A DNA stretch of 64,000 bases from an uncultured Acidobacteriota bacterium (GTDB lineage: Bacteria > Acidobacteriota > Thermoanaerobaculia > Multivoradales > JAHEKO01), in the NCBI GenBank assembly GCA_963713825.1, contig CAVQNG010000003.1, positions 96,001 to 160,000 on the forward strand. The letters run 5' to 3'. The notes beneath the pieces are model-generated. The model worked only from the letters and a program-made list of their open reading frames with translations. It was not told the origin of the DNA and did not search any database. Both the position numbers and the translations under genes were made by a program. Position 1 is the stretch's first letter, and each line of letters begins with the position of its first letter. Shown in pieces: positions 43,124 to 52,941 of the stretch.

Positions 43124-44398
43124 CTATCGAATCTGTAGGTAGCCGAAAACAAGAAAGAGTCCCAGAGTCCCGAGCAGCGCGATCCTCGCCAAAGGGCCGT
43201 TTCTGAGCGCTCCCATCGACTCACGACGACCGTTGAGAACCAACAGAGCCAAGGCCAGCATCGGTACGAAGAGCGCTCCCAGGACCGCATACACCAGCTG
43301 GATGCGGACGAAGCTGCTGAACAGACCCGCAATCGAGGCGAGTCCCAGCGCGACGAGGAATGCCCGGTAAGGCAACCGACCTGTATCCACCTGCTCCACC
43401 CTGTCTTCCTTCGATGCGGCGAGCAGTCGCCAGAGGTCGGCAAACAGATAGGGAACGGATTGCCAAACCCCCAACAGGCTGCTGGCCACGGCGCACCAGG
43501 CACCGATCAGGAAGAAGGCTCTTCCGAACGGCCCGAGAGCTTCACCCAACCGATTGGCGAGATCGACCAGCAAGGTCGCCCCTCCCCCTTCTACCTGGAC
43601 TGTCGAACCGACGATTACCATGCCGATTCCGAAGACCGCAGTGGCCGCATATCCCGTCGCCAGGTCCCACCGACACAGTCGCAGAGCTTCCGGCCCCTCT
43701 CGACCCACTTCGCGGATCCAATATCCGTAGCATAGGAGCGTGACCGTTCCTCCGACTCCGCCGAGCAGCGCCACAGTCATCAGCAACCCTCCCTCGCCGA
43801 CCAGCGGAATCGACGGAACCAAGGCTCCACGAACCACCGCTGAAAGATCGGGCCGCAGTGCCACCGCTGTGGTGATCACGGTGACGAACAGTAGCCCGAT
43901 CGAGATACCCATGACCCGCTCGAACAAGCGAAATCCCCCGACGAGAACCAGAATCACACCCGCCAGGCTGTGCGCCACACCGAATACGACCTTGCCTGTC
44001 ATGGGGTCCGAAAAAATCGGCGCCAAGGCATGTGCCGTGACTCCGCAGGCACTCACCAGAGCCCGCCCCACGGCGAAGCTCCAGACCAGCAGATAGGCGA
44101 GGAAGAAATAAGAGGCGGGTCGGCCGAGGTACCGAACAGCCCCTTCGAGCAACGTCGTCCCGGTTGCCAGCTGCCATCGGGCGAGGCCTTCGTTCAGGAC
44201 GTACTTGAGAGCCGCCCCCACGAGCACTGCCCACAGAACAACCAGACCAAGGCGACTGCCGACGATACTGGCTGTCGCCAGGTCTCCTGCTCCGACTCCG
44301 GTCGCCGCTACAAGCAGACCAGGGCCCACGAAGGCCAGCGGGTTGAACCGCCGCGATCGCGGCGGTCTTTGTGAAGGGTGTGCCGGCTTCGAGCCCAT
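43124..44398 (-). CDS. Nramp/MntH-like (APC superfamily) transporter
   Basis: GPGLLVAATGVGAGDL, NEGLARWQLATG, GGVGGTVTLLCYGYW; about 11 TM helices. Confidence 0.85.
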   Translation of the reverse strand: MGSKPAHPSQRPPRSRRFNPLAFVGPGLLVAATGVGAGDLATASIVGSRLGLVVLWAVLVGAALKYVLNEGLARWQLATGTTLLEGAVRYLGRPASYFFLAYLLVWSFAVGRALVSACGVTAHALAPIFSDPMTGKVVFGVAHSLAGVILVLVGGFRLFERVMGISIGLLFVTVITTAVALRPDLSAVVRGALVPSIPLVGEGGLLMTVALLGGVGGTVTLLCYGYWIREVGREGPEALRLCRWDLATGYAATAVFGIGMVIVGSTVQVEGGGATLLVDLANRLGEALGPFGRAFFLIGAWCAVASSLLGVWQSVPYLFADLWRLLAASKEDRVEQVDTGRLPYRAFLVALGLASIAGLFSSFVRIQLVYAVLGALFVPMLALALLVLNGRRESMGALRNGPLARIALLGTLGLFLVFGYLQIR

Positions 44399-44444: not shown

Positions 44445-44843
44445 CTATCGAATCAGGGACCAGAAGACGCCGAAGATACCGATGAAACCGATCACCACGT
44501 ACACCACAACGGTCCAGGTCCCCGGATCCGGTGACAGCATCTCGGCTGTGAATCCTTGGAGGAAGACGCCCAGGAGGCCCGCTCCCAGAAACTGGAACAG
44601 GACGTTCTTTCGATTTCGGAATTCGGTGTGAAGCCGATGGGCCGCGTATTGAACGTCTTTCTGTAGGACCAGGGCGTGCCTACGGGACCTGGCCGTATCC
44701 ACCGACTCGCGAATCAGCTGGCCGCCATAGTCCCGAATCTGCTTCACCGCGAAGTCGCGAGCGTGCTCGTGGAACTTGAGCTCGGGCTCCTCGCTGGCAG
44801 GCTGAGCAGTGGAATGCAGTTCCTCTTCGACCATGGGGTTCAC
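44445..44843 (-). CDS. Putative histone-fold (alpha2-L2-alpha3) protein with two C-terminal TM helices (start may be ATG 44834)
   Basis: KFHEHARDFAVKQIRDYGGQLIRESVDTARSRRHALVLQKDVQYAAHRL aligns without gaps, by eye, to archaeal HMf L1-alpha2-L2-alpha3; followed by two hydrophobic helices; GTGA overlap with the upstream gene. Confidence 0.6.
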   Translation of the reverse strand: MNPMVEEELHSTAQPASEEPELKFHEHARDFAVKQIRDYGGQLIRESVDTARSRRHALVLQKDVQYAAHRLHTEFRNRKNVLFQFLGAGLLGVFLQGFTAEMLSPDPGTWTVVVYVVIGFIGIFGVFWSLIR

Positions 44844-46231
44844 ACCTCGTAGCTACTGGGATAGGTAGACCTGGCCTTCAAATCCTCGGCCAGCTCGCTC
44901 AGGGCCTGTCTGACAATCGACCGCTCATCGGGAGTCAGAGATCTCGGCAGCTTCAAGCCGCCCGCAACCTGCACCAGGGTAAGCCCGAGACCGATCAAGA
45001 GCACCATCGCCAAGCTGAATAGGGTGATGGCGATGACTTCGCTTCGCGCCGTCCACGGGGTCGGCAGCACTCGCACGAACAGCGCTCCGACACTCGAGAC
45101 CAGCAACATCATGATCAGGCTGAAAACGACTGCGGCCCGGTTGGTGGGCGCATGCAAGAAGAGGCTAACCTGCTTGCCGGCGTCCACCAGAGTGTGGCTC
45201 ACCGACTCCACGGAGAGGGTATGGGGTCGCCTGCCGATGATGTTGATCAGCGAGCCGACAAGATCCATGAGTGACAGATCGGCCTCGATGCCCTCGGTCT
45301 CCTCGACCTCCACGCGCCGCTTGGCGATCTCATCCAGGATGATCTTGCTGGGTGGGGGGGGGTCGCCAACGAAATCGGCCATCTGTGAAACACGGCAGCC
45401 AGCCTCGATCAAAGGACGCACATCGACGCCCGTGGTGACCCCGATGCTGTCGAACATCGCCACGAGTTCCTCGGTCGCGACGTTCCCAATGGAGTGCCGG
45501 ACGGTGATGGCTCCTCCAATACCGCCGATCGAGGCGTCGAAGATACGGACACCGGCCTTGTAAGCCACAAACGCGTTGGTCACTCCTAGACCACGGCGGT
45601 CGTGGAGGTGAACACCGATGTGATCGAGACCCAGTTGCTGTGAAACGTGCCCGACGACACGCTCGATGTCGTTGGGTGTCGCCAGGCCATCCGTATCTGA
45701 GAGAGCGACCATCTCGCATCCCATCTCGATCAGACTCTGACTGATCTCGCTCACCTGACCAGCCGGCATCAGGCCATCCCTCTGACTCCTGTCGCGGAAG
45801 GCATAGGACAGATAGCCGCGCAATCGATAGCCGTCGGCCGCGGCCGCAGCCGCCACCTTGGCGGCGGCTTCGAGCGACTCCGCGACGCTCATGTGTGTGT
45901 TCTTCTGCGCATACTCCTCGGACGCCGAGACGAACAGTGCCACGGTGTTGACCCTCTCCGCCTCTCGCAACAGTTCGTAGTACTCGAGAGTTGGAGCCAG
46001 GGCGGCAATCTGGCCGTCATACGGGGGCAAACGTCGGAGTACCTCGGCGGTGTCCTGCATGGCTGGAACCACACGGGGGTTCACGAAGGAGCCCACTTCG
46101 ATGTAGGGCACACCGCTGCGCACCAGTGCTTCCGCCAATTGGAGACGTGCTTCCAAGGGAATCACCGCATGGCGGTTGAGGATCTGCATCCCGTCCCGTA
46201 GTGACACGTCACAGATCTTGACTTCGAACAT
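44840..46231 (-). CDS. Divergent HMG-CoA lyase-like (DRE-TIM) domain fused to a C-terminal 2-TM region (start may be GTG 46270)
   Basis: DVSLRDGMQ, IEVGSFVNP...VPAMQD, LSDTDG, HLHD, GNVATEELV; extra ~170-aa tail with two TM helices. Confidence 0.8.
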   Translation of the reverse strand: MFEVKICDVSLRDGMQILNRHAVIPLEARLQLAEALVRSGVPYIEVGSFVNPRVVPAMQDTAEVLRRLPPYDGQIAALAPTLEYYELLREAERVNTVALFVSASEEYAQKNTHMSVAESLEAAAKVAAAAAADGYRLRGYLSYAFRDRSQRDGLMPAGQVSEISQSLIEMGCEMVALSDTDGLATPNDIERVVGHVSQQLGLDHIGVHLHDRRGLGVTNAFVAYKAGVRIFDASIGGIGGAITVRHSIGNVATEELVAMFDSIGVTTGVDVRPLIEAGCRVSQMADFVGDPPPPSKIILDEIAKRRVEVEETEGIEADLSLMDLVGSLINIIGRRPHTLSVESVSHTLVDAGKQVSLFLHAPTNRAAVVFSLIMMLLVSSVGALFVRVLPTPWTARSEVIAITLFSLAMVLLIGLGLTLVQVAGGLKLPRSLTPDERSIVRQALSELAEDLKARSTYPSSYEV

Positions 46232-46380
46232 GGTCTCTTGGTTTCCGGCCTCGTGGTCCGTGCGTTGCACGTTTATCGTCTCACAATCACGCAGTGGTCG
46301 CTGTGAAGACTTTGGGAGTCGGTCGCCAGAGGAGCTCCACCTGGGAAACGGCCTCAGAAGCTGATAGGAATATCGGCAGC

Positions 46381-47694
46381 ATGCTCAACGCTCGCCGCTC
46401 GTTCCGGGCTTGGAGTCCTTGGCCCTTCCTTGCACTCTGGACGGCCCTGTGCCTGCCGAACCTGGCGCTGGCGGCTGAGGAAGAAACCAAGGTCCTGCCT
46501 TCCAGGGTCGATCTCCAGGCTCTCTACGAGAGTCGAGATTTCTTTTCTCTACGCGATCGACTCACAAGCCGCCCCGAGGGTGAGATACAAGATCCTGAGA
46601 ATCGTTTTTTCGCCGCAGCGGTCGAGCTGGCCTTCAACGACCCGGCCGCCTCGATTCGGATTGCCGAGTCCACAATCGAGGCAGAGGATCTGCCGCCCCT
46701 GGTCGCCCTCAGACTGCATCACCTGAGGGTGACCGCCTATCTGCGCCTCCACAGGTATGGCGAGGCGCTTGCAGCGGCCCGCACTCTCTTGAGCTCACCG
46801 GTCCGGCAAGAGGAACCAGCTATCGAACAGGAGGTCCGCGGCACCCTGCCTCTCCTCGAAGCTCTGAAAGAGGCCCCGCCGCAGGAAGCCCTGATACGCC
46901 GCTCGAGCCGCCTGGCGCTGGGAAAATCCCGCCGCGTACCGCTGAGAATCGGCGACAAGAAACGCCAGTTCTCTCTCGACACCGGCGCCAACTTCTCCGT
47001 CATCATGGCCTCTGAGGCCGAGGCATTGGGTCTGACCATCAGGCCGGCAGGGGTTGAGGTCGCCACCTCGACAGGCGCCAAGGTTCTGGCGGACGTGGCC
47101 GTAGCCAAACAGATGTCCATAGGGAAGATCGACTACACCAACGTCGTGTTCCTCGTTTTCCCGGACGAGCTCCTCACCTTCCCGGACGGCCACCGGATCC
47201 CGGGGCTGATTGGATTCCCGGTCGTCGAGGCCATGGGAGAGATTCGCTTCCGTCGCGATGACGTCATGGAGATCCCCTCGAGGCCGCCCGTTCGCAAGTT
47301 GGGAAACCTGGCCCTCGCCGGCCTGGACCCCCTGGTACAGATTCGTTACAGCGGCGACGACCTGGTCTGTCGCCTCGATACCGGTGCCAACAAGACCGTC
47401 TTCTATGAGCCGTTCTATCAGCGGTACCGCGAGCGCCTGGATGCGCTCGGGAGAAAAGTCACGGTCACCACAGGCGGAGTCGGTGGCTTCCAGGAGATAC
47501 CCGCCCTCCAGCTGCCACGGCTCGCAATGACCATCGCAGCCGGAGGTACAAACCTGCGGGATGTGGATGTATACCTTCGCCCGATTCGGGCACCGGAGGA
47601 GAACTACCTCTATTGCAACATCGGGCTGGACGTGTTGCACCGATTCAGTGCCTACGTCGTCAACTTTCGCGACATGGCACTGGTCCTGGAGTGA
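46381..47694 (+). CDS. Exported tandem retropepsin-like aspartyl protease with TPR-like N-terminus
   Basis: Signal peptide; two LDTGA motifs; GLIGFP and NIGLDVL closing motifs. Confidence 0.85.
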   Translation: MLNARRSFRAWSPWPFLALWTALCLPNLALAAEEETKVLPSRVDLQALYESRDFFSLRDRLTSRPEGEIQDPENRFFAAAVELAFNDPAASIRIAESTIEAEDLPPLVALRLHHLRVTAYLRLHRYGEALAAARTLLSSPVRQEEPAIEQEVRGTLPLLEALKEAPPQEALIRRSSRLALGKSRRVPLRIGDKKRQFSLDTGANFSVIMASEAEALGLTIRPAGVEVATSTGAKVLADVAVAKQMSIGKIDYTNVVFLVFPDELLTFPDGHRIPGLIGFPVVEAMGEIRFRRDDVMEIPSRPPVRKLGNLALAGLDPLVQIRYSGDDLVCRLDTGANKTVFYEPFYQRYRERLDALGRKVTVTTGGVGGFQEIPALQLPRLAMTIAAGGTNLRDVDVYLRPIRAPEENYLYCNIGLDVLHRFSAYVVNFRDMALVLE

Positions 47695-51615: not shown

Positions 51616-52941
51616 ATGCAACAGTCCATAGTTCCGATGCACCGCAGAATCCTGATGGCCGGTTGCCTTGGCATTTGCCTGACTGCCTCTGTCAGCGCCC
51701 AATATGGTGCTCCGTCGAGCGGCGTCACTCTCTTTCGAGACCTCAACTTCTCCGGCCGTAGTCAGACCTTCACCGGTGACGTCTCTAATCTGCAGGGCTC
51801 CTACGTCGGTAACGACACGACCACTTCCGTGCGGATTGAACCTGGCTGCCGCGCCCGGCTCTACGCGGATGCGGACTACCGGGGCGGCTATCTCGAGGTG
51901 GATCGCGACGTTTCCGATCTGAGAGGCTCGTCGGTCGGCAACGACACCGTCACCTCTATGCGGGTGCACTGTGAAGAGGGTGGATGGGGTAGTGACAGCG
52001 ACTGGAACAGTGGCGGATCAACCCCTGGTGTGACGCTTTATCGCGACCTCGACTTCTCCGGCCGGAATCAGAAGATCAACGACGACATCTCCGACCTACG
52101 GGGCCACTATGTCGGCAACGACACAGCCACCTCCGTACGGATCGATCCCGGCTGCTCGGCCAGACTCTACGCCGACGCCAACTACCAGGGCAGCTATCTC
52201 GAGGCGGACCGCGACATCTCCGATTTGAGGGGCTCGTCCGTCGGCAACGACGCTGTCACCTCTGTGCGAGTCCGTTGTGACAGGAATGGGGGCGGATGGA
52301 ATAGCGGCAGCGACTGGAACAGTGGCGGGAGTGGATCGACTGGTGGCAGCACCACCAACGGTGTGACGCTCTATCGTGACCTCAATCTCTCCGGCCGAAG
52401 TCAGACTTTCACGGGCGACATCTCCGACCTGCGAGGCTCCTATGTCGGCAACGACGCCGCCACCTCTGTGCGGGTGAGCCGAGGCTGTCGTGCCAGGCTC
52501 TTCGCCGACGCCAACTACCGAGGTGCCTACATCGAAACGGAGCGTGATATCTCGGATCTACGTGGTTCACCAGTGGGCAACGATACGGTCACTTCCATCC
52601 AAGTGCGATGCGAAACCGACGGAGGCGGCTGGAATAGCGGCGGGGAGTGGGGCAGCGGAGATTCGAACTGGGGAACAAGCCACCGTGTCTCTCTGTACCA
52701 GCACACGAATTTTCGCGGCACCGCCTATTCTTTCGACTCGGACACAGGAGATCTGCGCGCCGCGTTCGGTGCCAACGACGAGGCGAGCTCGGTGCGAGTC
52801 GCCCCCGGTTGCACGGTGCGCCTCTATCAGGACCCCCAGTTTCAGGGGGAGTACACCGAGACCAGTCGCGATATCGAGGATCTGAGGGACTCTCGGGTGG
52901 GTAACGACACCACCAGCTCGATTCAGGTTCGTTGCCGATAG
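51616..52941 (+). CDS. Secreted beta/gamma-crystallin repeat protein (4 domains, 8 Greek keys)
   Basis: Signal peptide; repeated TL(F/Y)RDLNFSG / LYADANYxG and GND.xTS(V/I) Ca-binding-type motifs; Gly/Trp linkers. Confidence 0.85.
   Translation: MQQSIVPMHRRILMAGCLGICLTASVSAQYGAPSSGVTLFRDLNFSGRSQTFTGDVSNLQGSYVGNDTTTSVRIEPGCRARLYADADYRGGYLEVDRDVSDLRGSSVGNDTVTSMRVHCEEGGWGSDSDWNSGGSTPGVTLYRDLDFSGRNQKINDDISDLRGHYVGNDTATSVRIDPGCSARLYADANYQGSYLEADRDISDLRGSSVGNDAVTSVRVRCDRNGGGWNSGSDWNSGGSGSTGGSTTNGVTLYRDLNLSGRSQTFTGDISDLRGSYVGNDAATSVRVSRGCRARLFADANYRGAYIETERDISDLRGSPVGNDTVTSIQVRCETDGGGWNSGGEWGSGDSNWGTSHRVSLYQHTNFRGTAYSFDSDTGDLRAAFGANDEASSVRVAPGCTVRLYQDPQFQGEYTETSRDIEDLRDSRVGNDTTSSIQVRCR

Follow-up and report, generated by a model that had tools for sequence, protein, structure and literature searches.

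Why an enzyme of the HMG-CoA lyase type should end in a membrane tail, and be followed by a gene for a small transmembrane protein with a histone-like fold (hereafter TM-histone), is the question raised by two genes in a 64,000-nucleotide stretch of DNA, called the window throughout, whose host is a sediment bacterium. The explanation that we favour, to which we give a probability of about one half, is that a working leucine-breakdown lyase has captured one of the two genes of a TM-histone module, the partner, and is clamped at the inner membrane.

The two genes, their limits and their junction

The preliminary description placed a lyase and a small reading frame on the minus strand, and both were found with their coordinates as claimed (Table 1). 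Since most homologues of the lyase are 458-467 aa long, its likely start is ATG 46231 (463 aa) and not GTG 46270. For the small gene, ATG 44834 (129 aa) is the likely start, as it is preceded by a GAGGTG and as its closest homologues are also 129 aa long. A GTGA stop/start overlap had been put forward as a sign of translational coupling; it is present at 44840-44843, but is incidental given the likely start of the small gene. Lyase/TM-histone junctions have short gaps of variable length, and among 20 of them a GTG-TGA overlap in the frame of the small gene is confined to the window and its three nearest relatives (L001-L003), so that GTGA was rejected as a conserved coupling element. Translational coupling of the two genes is still likely, since the terminal YEV codons of the lyase themselves spell the GAGGT site.

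Table 1. Features of the lyase/TM-histone locus, in window coordinates.
Feature	Position	Strand	Basis
Cys-less HMG-CoA-lyase-like enzyme with two-TM tail, 463 aa from ATG 46231	44840..46231	(-)	
Longest lyase ORF	begins GTG 46270	(-)	
DRE-TIM barrel, aa 1-295 of the lyase	45347..46231	(-)	
G-loop GIGGAITVRHSIGN of the lyase	45482..45523	(-)	
Tail TM hairpin, aa ~368-386 and ~399-417	44981..45130	(-)	hydropathy, model
Lyase C-terminal amphipathic helix, aa 434-455	44867..44932	(-)	
GAGGTG ribosome-binding-like site in the final codons of the lyase, 8 nt before ATG 44834	44843..44848	(-)	
TM-histone, 129 aa	44445..44834	(-)	
TM-histone loop1-helix2-loop2-helix3, without helix 1	44625-44783	(-)	
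TM-histone Gly-rich TM hairpin	44547-44603, 44451-44507	(-)	
Nramp-family transporter, local neighbour outside the module	43124..44398	(-)	

An Nramp-like gene does begin 46 bp downstream, as had been noted, but it is not a conserved part of the module and was rejected as a member, since an Nramp gene follows the pair in only 3/20 loci. No promoter-like site was found at the locus, and terminator-like sites were at chance level. Contigs from RNA libraries of three studies cover pieces of it, and one of them spans 44724-44974; such coverage is no evidence of transcription or of co-transcription. Two further genes of the window lie on the plus strand: 46294-47694 encodes a divergent protein of 466 aa in which aspartyl-protease domains are repeated in tandem, and which only the three nearest relatives retain, and 51616-52941 encodes a protein of 441 aa whose N-terminus is signal-like and which has four ~90-aa repeats with Gly/Trp-rich linkers between them.

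Hydropathy and the model give the tail of the lyase (~168 aa) two hydrophobic stretches and a helix at its end, in agreement with the preliminary description. Searching 1973 candidates for this tail returned 83 clusters, all of them with PF00682 and at 52-97% identity, the named ones belonging to Thermoanaerobaculia or Acidobacteriota; the fusion of a lyase with two TM segments is hence found beyond this assembly. A chimera or a frameshift was rejected on the basis of these 83 tailed clusters, of the coverage by read runs (16/24 runs, among the matches listed, contain at least half of the words of the stretch) and of the low dN/dS (0.035-0.077 for the barrel, the tail and the small gene, against three relatives). 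The Atlas returned nothing for the tail, and the terminal helix had no histone match in the PDB.

A lyase barrel without its cysteine

The likeness of the first gene product to HMG-CoA lyases is borne out by a Pfam HMGL-like match (PF00682, E 5e-37) that spans residues 17-290 of the long ORF, and by the structural model, a confident barrel that matches solved HMG-CoA lyases and has 2ftp as its best Foldseek match (E 1.7e-26, TM 0.92, rmsd 2.1 A, 33% identity). The score against the NCBIfam HMG-CoA lyase model NF004283 is 227 bits, under the cut-off of 246 bits. It had been noted that the RDG and HxHD metal motifs are retained and that both Cys-Pro loops are lost, and this is the case (GGCPY has become GGAITV, and AxGCP has become AFRD). 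The barrel retains R12, D13, E45, Y140, D179, H208, H210 and N250; when compared with the residues listed as critical in the human enzyme in the consulted part of PMC6941031, Cys266 among them, only Cys266 is missing, and Ala241 stands in its place. The confidence of the model in the G-loop is low (pLDDT <50 at 241-247).

The same pattern extends to the relatives of the lyase. The equivalents of human R41, D42, E72, H233, H235 and N275 are present in 32/32 Cys-less locus rows, and those of Arg41, Asp42, Glu72, Tyr167, His233, His235 and Asn275 are invariant in a 60-row alignment of tailed lyases (R and D in 59 rows, with one gap); the metal ligands are all invariant. At the Cys266 position, Ala is found in 60/60 rows of this alignment, while the locus rows have Ala in the 21 tailed forms, Asn, Ser or Thr in the 11 sisters without this tail, and Cys in 24/24 canonical lyases, one of these 24 rows coming from a genome marked as unpublished (G537). 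An Arg at position 146 and an Asp at position 181 occur in 32/32 Cys-less rows vs 0/24 canonical ones. We rejected the idea that the tail fusion caused the loss of the cysteine, as the 11/11 sisters without this tail are also Cys-less. Other DRE-TIM enzymes function without this cysteine. The site of the Cys-less clade looks rebuilt and not decayed, since the other critical residues are kept and Arg146 and Asp181 have been gained in all Cys-less rows. This makes it a whole clade of HMG-CoA-lyase relatives that lack the 'critical' cysteine and have an invariant Arg and Asp, which bears on the role of the cysteine itself.

The phylogenetic tree, which took 10 of the 24 canonical rows with duplicates left out, splits the Cys-less clade from canonical lyases at 100/100, on a long branch. 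Tail-less forms are nested among the tailed ones, with no strong support for this nesting; monophyly of the tailed forms was not rejected (p-AU 0.42).

Cys-less lyases of other kinds were also observed. At L025:8001-9296 and L040:1474-2799, a Cys-less lyase with a different, unrelated-looking two-TM tail and no TM-histone sits between MCC-beta and hydratase genes. Two Cys-less paralogues occur in one Deferribacteres-labelled genome (L028:7977-9182 and L029:7989-8927); one of them has a soluble tail of ~100 aa, and both have His for Tyr140.

Pairing of the lyase with the TM-histone and its leucine-cluster context

A scan of genomes gave 30 loci, of which 20 have this tail and 10 lack it. The TM-histone follows the lyase in 20/20 tailed loci and in 0/10 of the others (one of which ends inside the lyase gene), and thus the two genes do co-occur elsewhere, as had been anticipated. 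Both genes are found in the same 5/251 genomes of the class, all five from one family; the pairing tallies include three genomes marked as unpublished (G537, G541 and G024), none of which is among the five. An MCC-beta gene lies directly before the pair in 6/20 loci and an enoyl-CoA hydratase gene directly after it in 8/20. The genome of the window has its MCC-beta and hydratase genes 41 bp apart on contig C25 and the lyase and TM-histone genes on contig C3, which suggests that the pair was relocated as one unit. The strict co-occurrence, together with this apparent joint move out of the leucine cluster, supports a functional pair, and the two-gene module of the preliminary description can be considered real. 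The pairing is conserved and, since a literature search found no description of it, apparently new.

The preliminary description had proposed that the barrel is a non-catalytic metabolite binder or sensor. We find this less likely than a working lyase, given that the loss of the cysteine is common to 11/11 sisters without this tail, that MCC-beta and hydratase genes often flank the pair, and that the lyase is the only HMG-CoA-lyase-like match in 10/15 tailed genomes, a tally of matches in incomplete assemblies and not of copy numbers. Together with the retention of the other critical residues and the gain of the Arg and the Asp, these flanks and this sole occurrence indicate that the Cys-less tailed lyase is probably a working enzyme. 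It resembles HMG-CoA lyase (LiuE/HMGCL; 2ftp, 2cw6, 1ydo, 1ydn; PF00682; NF004283) in its TIM barrel, in its R-D motif and its equivalents of E72, Y167, HxH and N275, and in its leucine-cluster neighbours. It differs from HMG-CoA lyase in having no Cys266 equivalent, a two-residue insert after RDGMQ, the invariant R146 and D181, a score below the NCBIfam cut-off, a 168-aa membrane tail and an obligate downstream partner.

The long branch and the rebuilt loops could also mean that the Cys-less clade is a paralogue that acts on some other 3-hydroxyacyl-CoA, hydrophobic or different in another way, or an inactive one, anchored near a membrane-bound substrate. A second HMG-CoA-lyase-like gene, which is matched in 5/15 tailed and 2/5 short-form genomes, would agree with this, as would the existence of a second, independent-looking TM tail. 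We regard it as quite unlikely, however, because the lyase is the sole match in the other 10/15 genomes, all metal ligands are invariant, and the MCC-beta and hydratase genes exist in the genome of the window.

The TM-histone, its stand-alone relatives and the link to defence proteins

The small protein had been described as a truncated histone fold with two TM segments, and both parts of this description stand: hydropathy gives two TM segments, and a histone-like helix2-loop2-helix3 is present with helix 1 absent, so that the canonical three-helix fold is incomplete. The model has helices at 23-50, 58-99 and 106-128, and none before residue 23. Every Foldseek match among those listed was a histone-fold entry (E 0.3-0.7 over ~50 columns, individually weak), and a wide structural search placed a chain of TAF5-TAF6-TAF9 first (Z 8.6, 60 aligned, rmsd 2.7), level with simple helical hairpins. 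A 47-row family profile matched histones with E 0.003-0.05, weak when taken singly, as well as a designed helical protein. The histone matches start past helix 1, at residue ~20 (HPhA 20-69 of 70). The archaeal RKTV stretch, of which RKT are the DNA-contact residues, aligns to HPLV in the TM-histone, and the head is nearly neutral, with 11 K/R vs 10 D/E. PF00808 gave no score on a close genome, Pfam and PHROGs held no real family for the TM-histones or for the partners described below, and in the Atlas the TM-histone matched three clusters without a name, at 0.91-0.94.

By its category description, the protein fits the 'transmembrane' histones, a category to which Schwab et al. (2024, PMC11390915) gave its name but no function, and whose members have a histone-like fold and TM helices and lack the usual DNA-binding residues. 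In the parts of that paper that were covered these are given without a partner gene or function, and the word 'lyase' is absent from the main text and three supplement files; Supplementary Fig. 7 may show a partner. The lyase pair would hence give the transmembrane histones a concrete candidate partner and a hypothesis of helix-1 complementation.

Distant relatives of the TM-histone exist at 22-39% identity. A metagenome scan gave 39 loci, which form 19 groups, and no lyase is upstream of the TM-histone in any of the 39. In 16/16 groups with an intact TM-histone, a small membrane ORF of 110-285 aa lies directly upstream, and the last element of these stand-alone partners is an amphipathic helix that has an invariant Phe. 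Most partners have two TM segments; those of three groups have one or three, and one is cut by a contig end. The remaining three of the 19 groups are two decayed loci and one CARF-TM protein. In another phylum, one genome has an adjacent membrane ORF of 109 aa that lacks the Phe motif. Decayed modules with stops and frameshifts were seen at L099, L102 and L103, both genes being broken in L099. One genome (G579) has two TM-histone matches (C159:187-567 and C112:3-209), one of them cut by the contig end, which may stand for a second copy or for overlapping assembly. FG-GAP repeats are present in a protein of >1000 aa encoded at L034:1-3165, which also has weak matches to a soluble histone fold (PF00808, E 0.02) and to the Cdc6 lid.

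The lyase tail holds the same position and has the same architecture as the stand-alone partner. A profile of the tail ranked partners 1-7 among 460 scored small ORFs with 2-3 TM segments; partners outscored 145 matched controls (p 3e-5 and 1e-4), and the enrichment at the level of groups gave p 3e-5 to 0.002. Pairwise hhalign of tail and partner reached a probability of 12%, the partner profile ranked the window protein 160th of 975, and just 3-4/15 partners exceeded the 95th percentile of segment shuffles. The tail likely derives from a stand-alone partner gene of the TM-histone, by a homology that is statistical only. Fused partner-histone proteins were absent among 7992 candidates of 259-2000 aa, sizes above the 232-258 aa expected of such a fusion.

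Because the stand-alone partners end in a like helix, the proposal that the terminal helix of the lyase complements the histone fold gains indirect support, and the helix at aa 434-455 is a likely candidate for the replacement of histone helix 1. The more distant TM-histone at L104:5089-5781 (132 aa) has, by eye, a helix-like stretch before loop 1 and no membrane partner, its upstream ORF of 76 aa being ribbon-helix-helix-like by eye with no Pfam match; an extra N-terminal stretch without a partner fits complementation, as a single case.

According to the explanation that we favour, the lyase would be the working leucine-breakdown enzyme of its lineage and would cleave HMG-CoA with a rebuilt site that includes the gained Arg146 and Asp181. 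Its tail would be the first of the two halves of a membrane module, captured by the lyase and homologous to the stand-alone partner, and the TM-histone would be the second half, predicted to clamp the last helix of the tail and so to keep the lyase on the inner membrane, tail and TM-histone together making up a four-helix membrane unit. The amphipathic helix of the partner would stand in for histone helix 1, which the TM-histone lacks, and the shortened histone fold would serve as a protein-pairing clamp, not as a DNA binder. Stability, oligomer assembly and product hand-off are possible benefits of such anchoring. Against this explanation, the other two-TM tail of L025 and L040 means that a lyase can be anchored without a TM-histone. 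The low pairwise scores of tail and partner, the absence of the critical Cys266, the score below the NCBIfam cut-off, the other lyase-like gene in 5/15 genomes, the terminal helix without a histone match and the individually weak histone-fold scores count against it too.

The patchy distribution of the stand-alone module and the varied N-termini of its partners (a zinc ribbon in L081, a long extension in L072) would also agree with a toxin-antitoxin-like cassette that entered the genome just after the lyase gene and whose antitoxin half was fused to the enzyme through the loss of a stop; the toxin would then need its neutraliser, with no tie to catalysis. The joint decay of both genes in L099 and the presence of tail-less sisters near the same hydratase and MCC-beta genes point the same way. 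Such an addiction-type hitch-hiker is very unlikely, however, since nothing would then prevent the loss of the TM-histone by itself, and 20/20 loci nevertheless keep it at 62-95% identity and with a dN/dS of ~0.04.

A defence-like role, also raised by the preliminary description, is kept as a minority reading: the TM hairpin is common to one CARF-TM protein, whereas the housekeeping context and the strong purifying selection of the fused pair speak against it. It could take the form of a metabolic guard, in which the TM-histone is a membrane-disrupting effector that the lyase tail keeps inactive, and that is set free once a phage, for instance, disturbs the lyase or the ligand of its barrel (HMG-CoA, acyl-CoA). 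The hairpins of the TM-histone and of the CARF-TM protein are homologous (hhalign 99.2%), the latter being a 255-aa protein encoded with a Csx15-like gene and mCpol in a type II Panoptes-like locus (L101:176-1742, also L100), and the membrane domain of CARF-TM is needed for toxicity in type II Panoptes, according to the part of PMC13577387 consulted. Beyond this hairpin the window module is unlike the type II Panoptes of that source, as it has no CARF domain or mCpol and its cytoplasmic head is a histone half-fold. Among the neighbours checked (76 of 128 listed ORFs by Pfam and 28 proteins by PADLOC), PADLOC-matching, defence-like genes lie near 3/16 stand-alone groups, a count without a background control, and a recombinase or transposase lies near two of the 16; the other neighbours include FtsK, EF-G and hydrolases. 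The shared hairpin is however limited to a single CARF-TM lineage (2 loci), and TM-histones miss the CARF_TM model of PADLOC, which gave no match for either window protein and weak matches at most for the module's own proteins. Plasmids, phages, viral contigs and PHROGs gave no match to the module proteins. A guard is considered unlikely.

A broader and equally doubtful proposal is that the split histone fold is a bacterial modular membrane switch, which here would make a membrane pore or effector respond to the state of an enzyme of leucine catabolism. One gene would provide helix 1 on a two-TM anchor that can be fused to a cargo, here the Cys-free HMG-CoA lyase, and the other would provide helices 2-3 on an effector-type TM hairpin, which is also present in the Panoptes-like CARF-TM protein. 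The hairpin common to both ties the TM-histone family to membrane-acting defence proteins; the one in L101 is of the TM-histone type, and that locus has a ring-nuclease-like gene in front.
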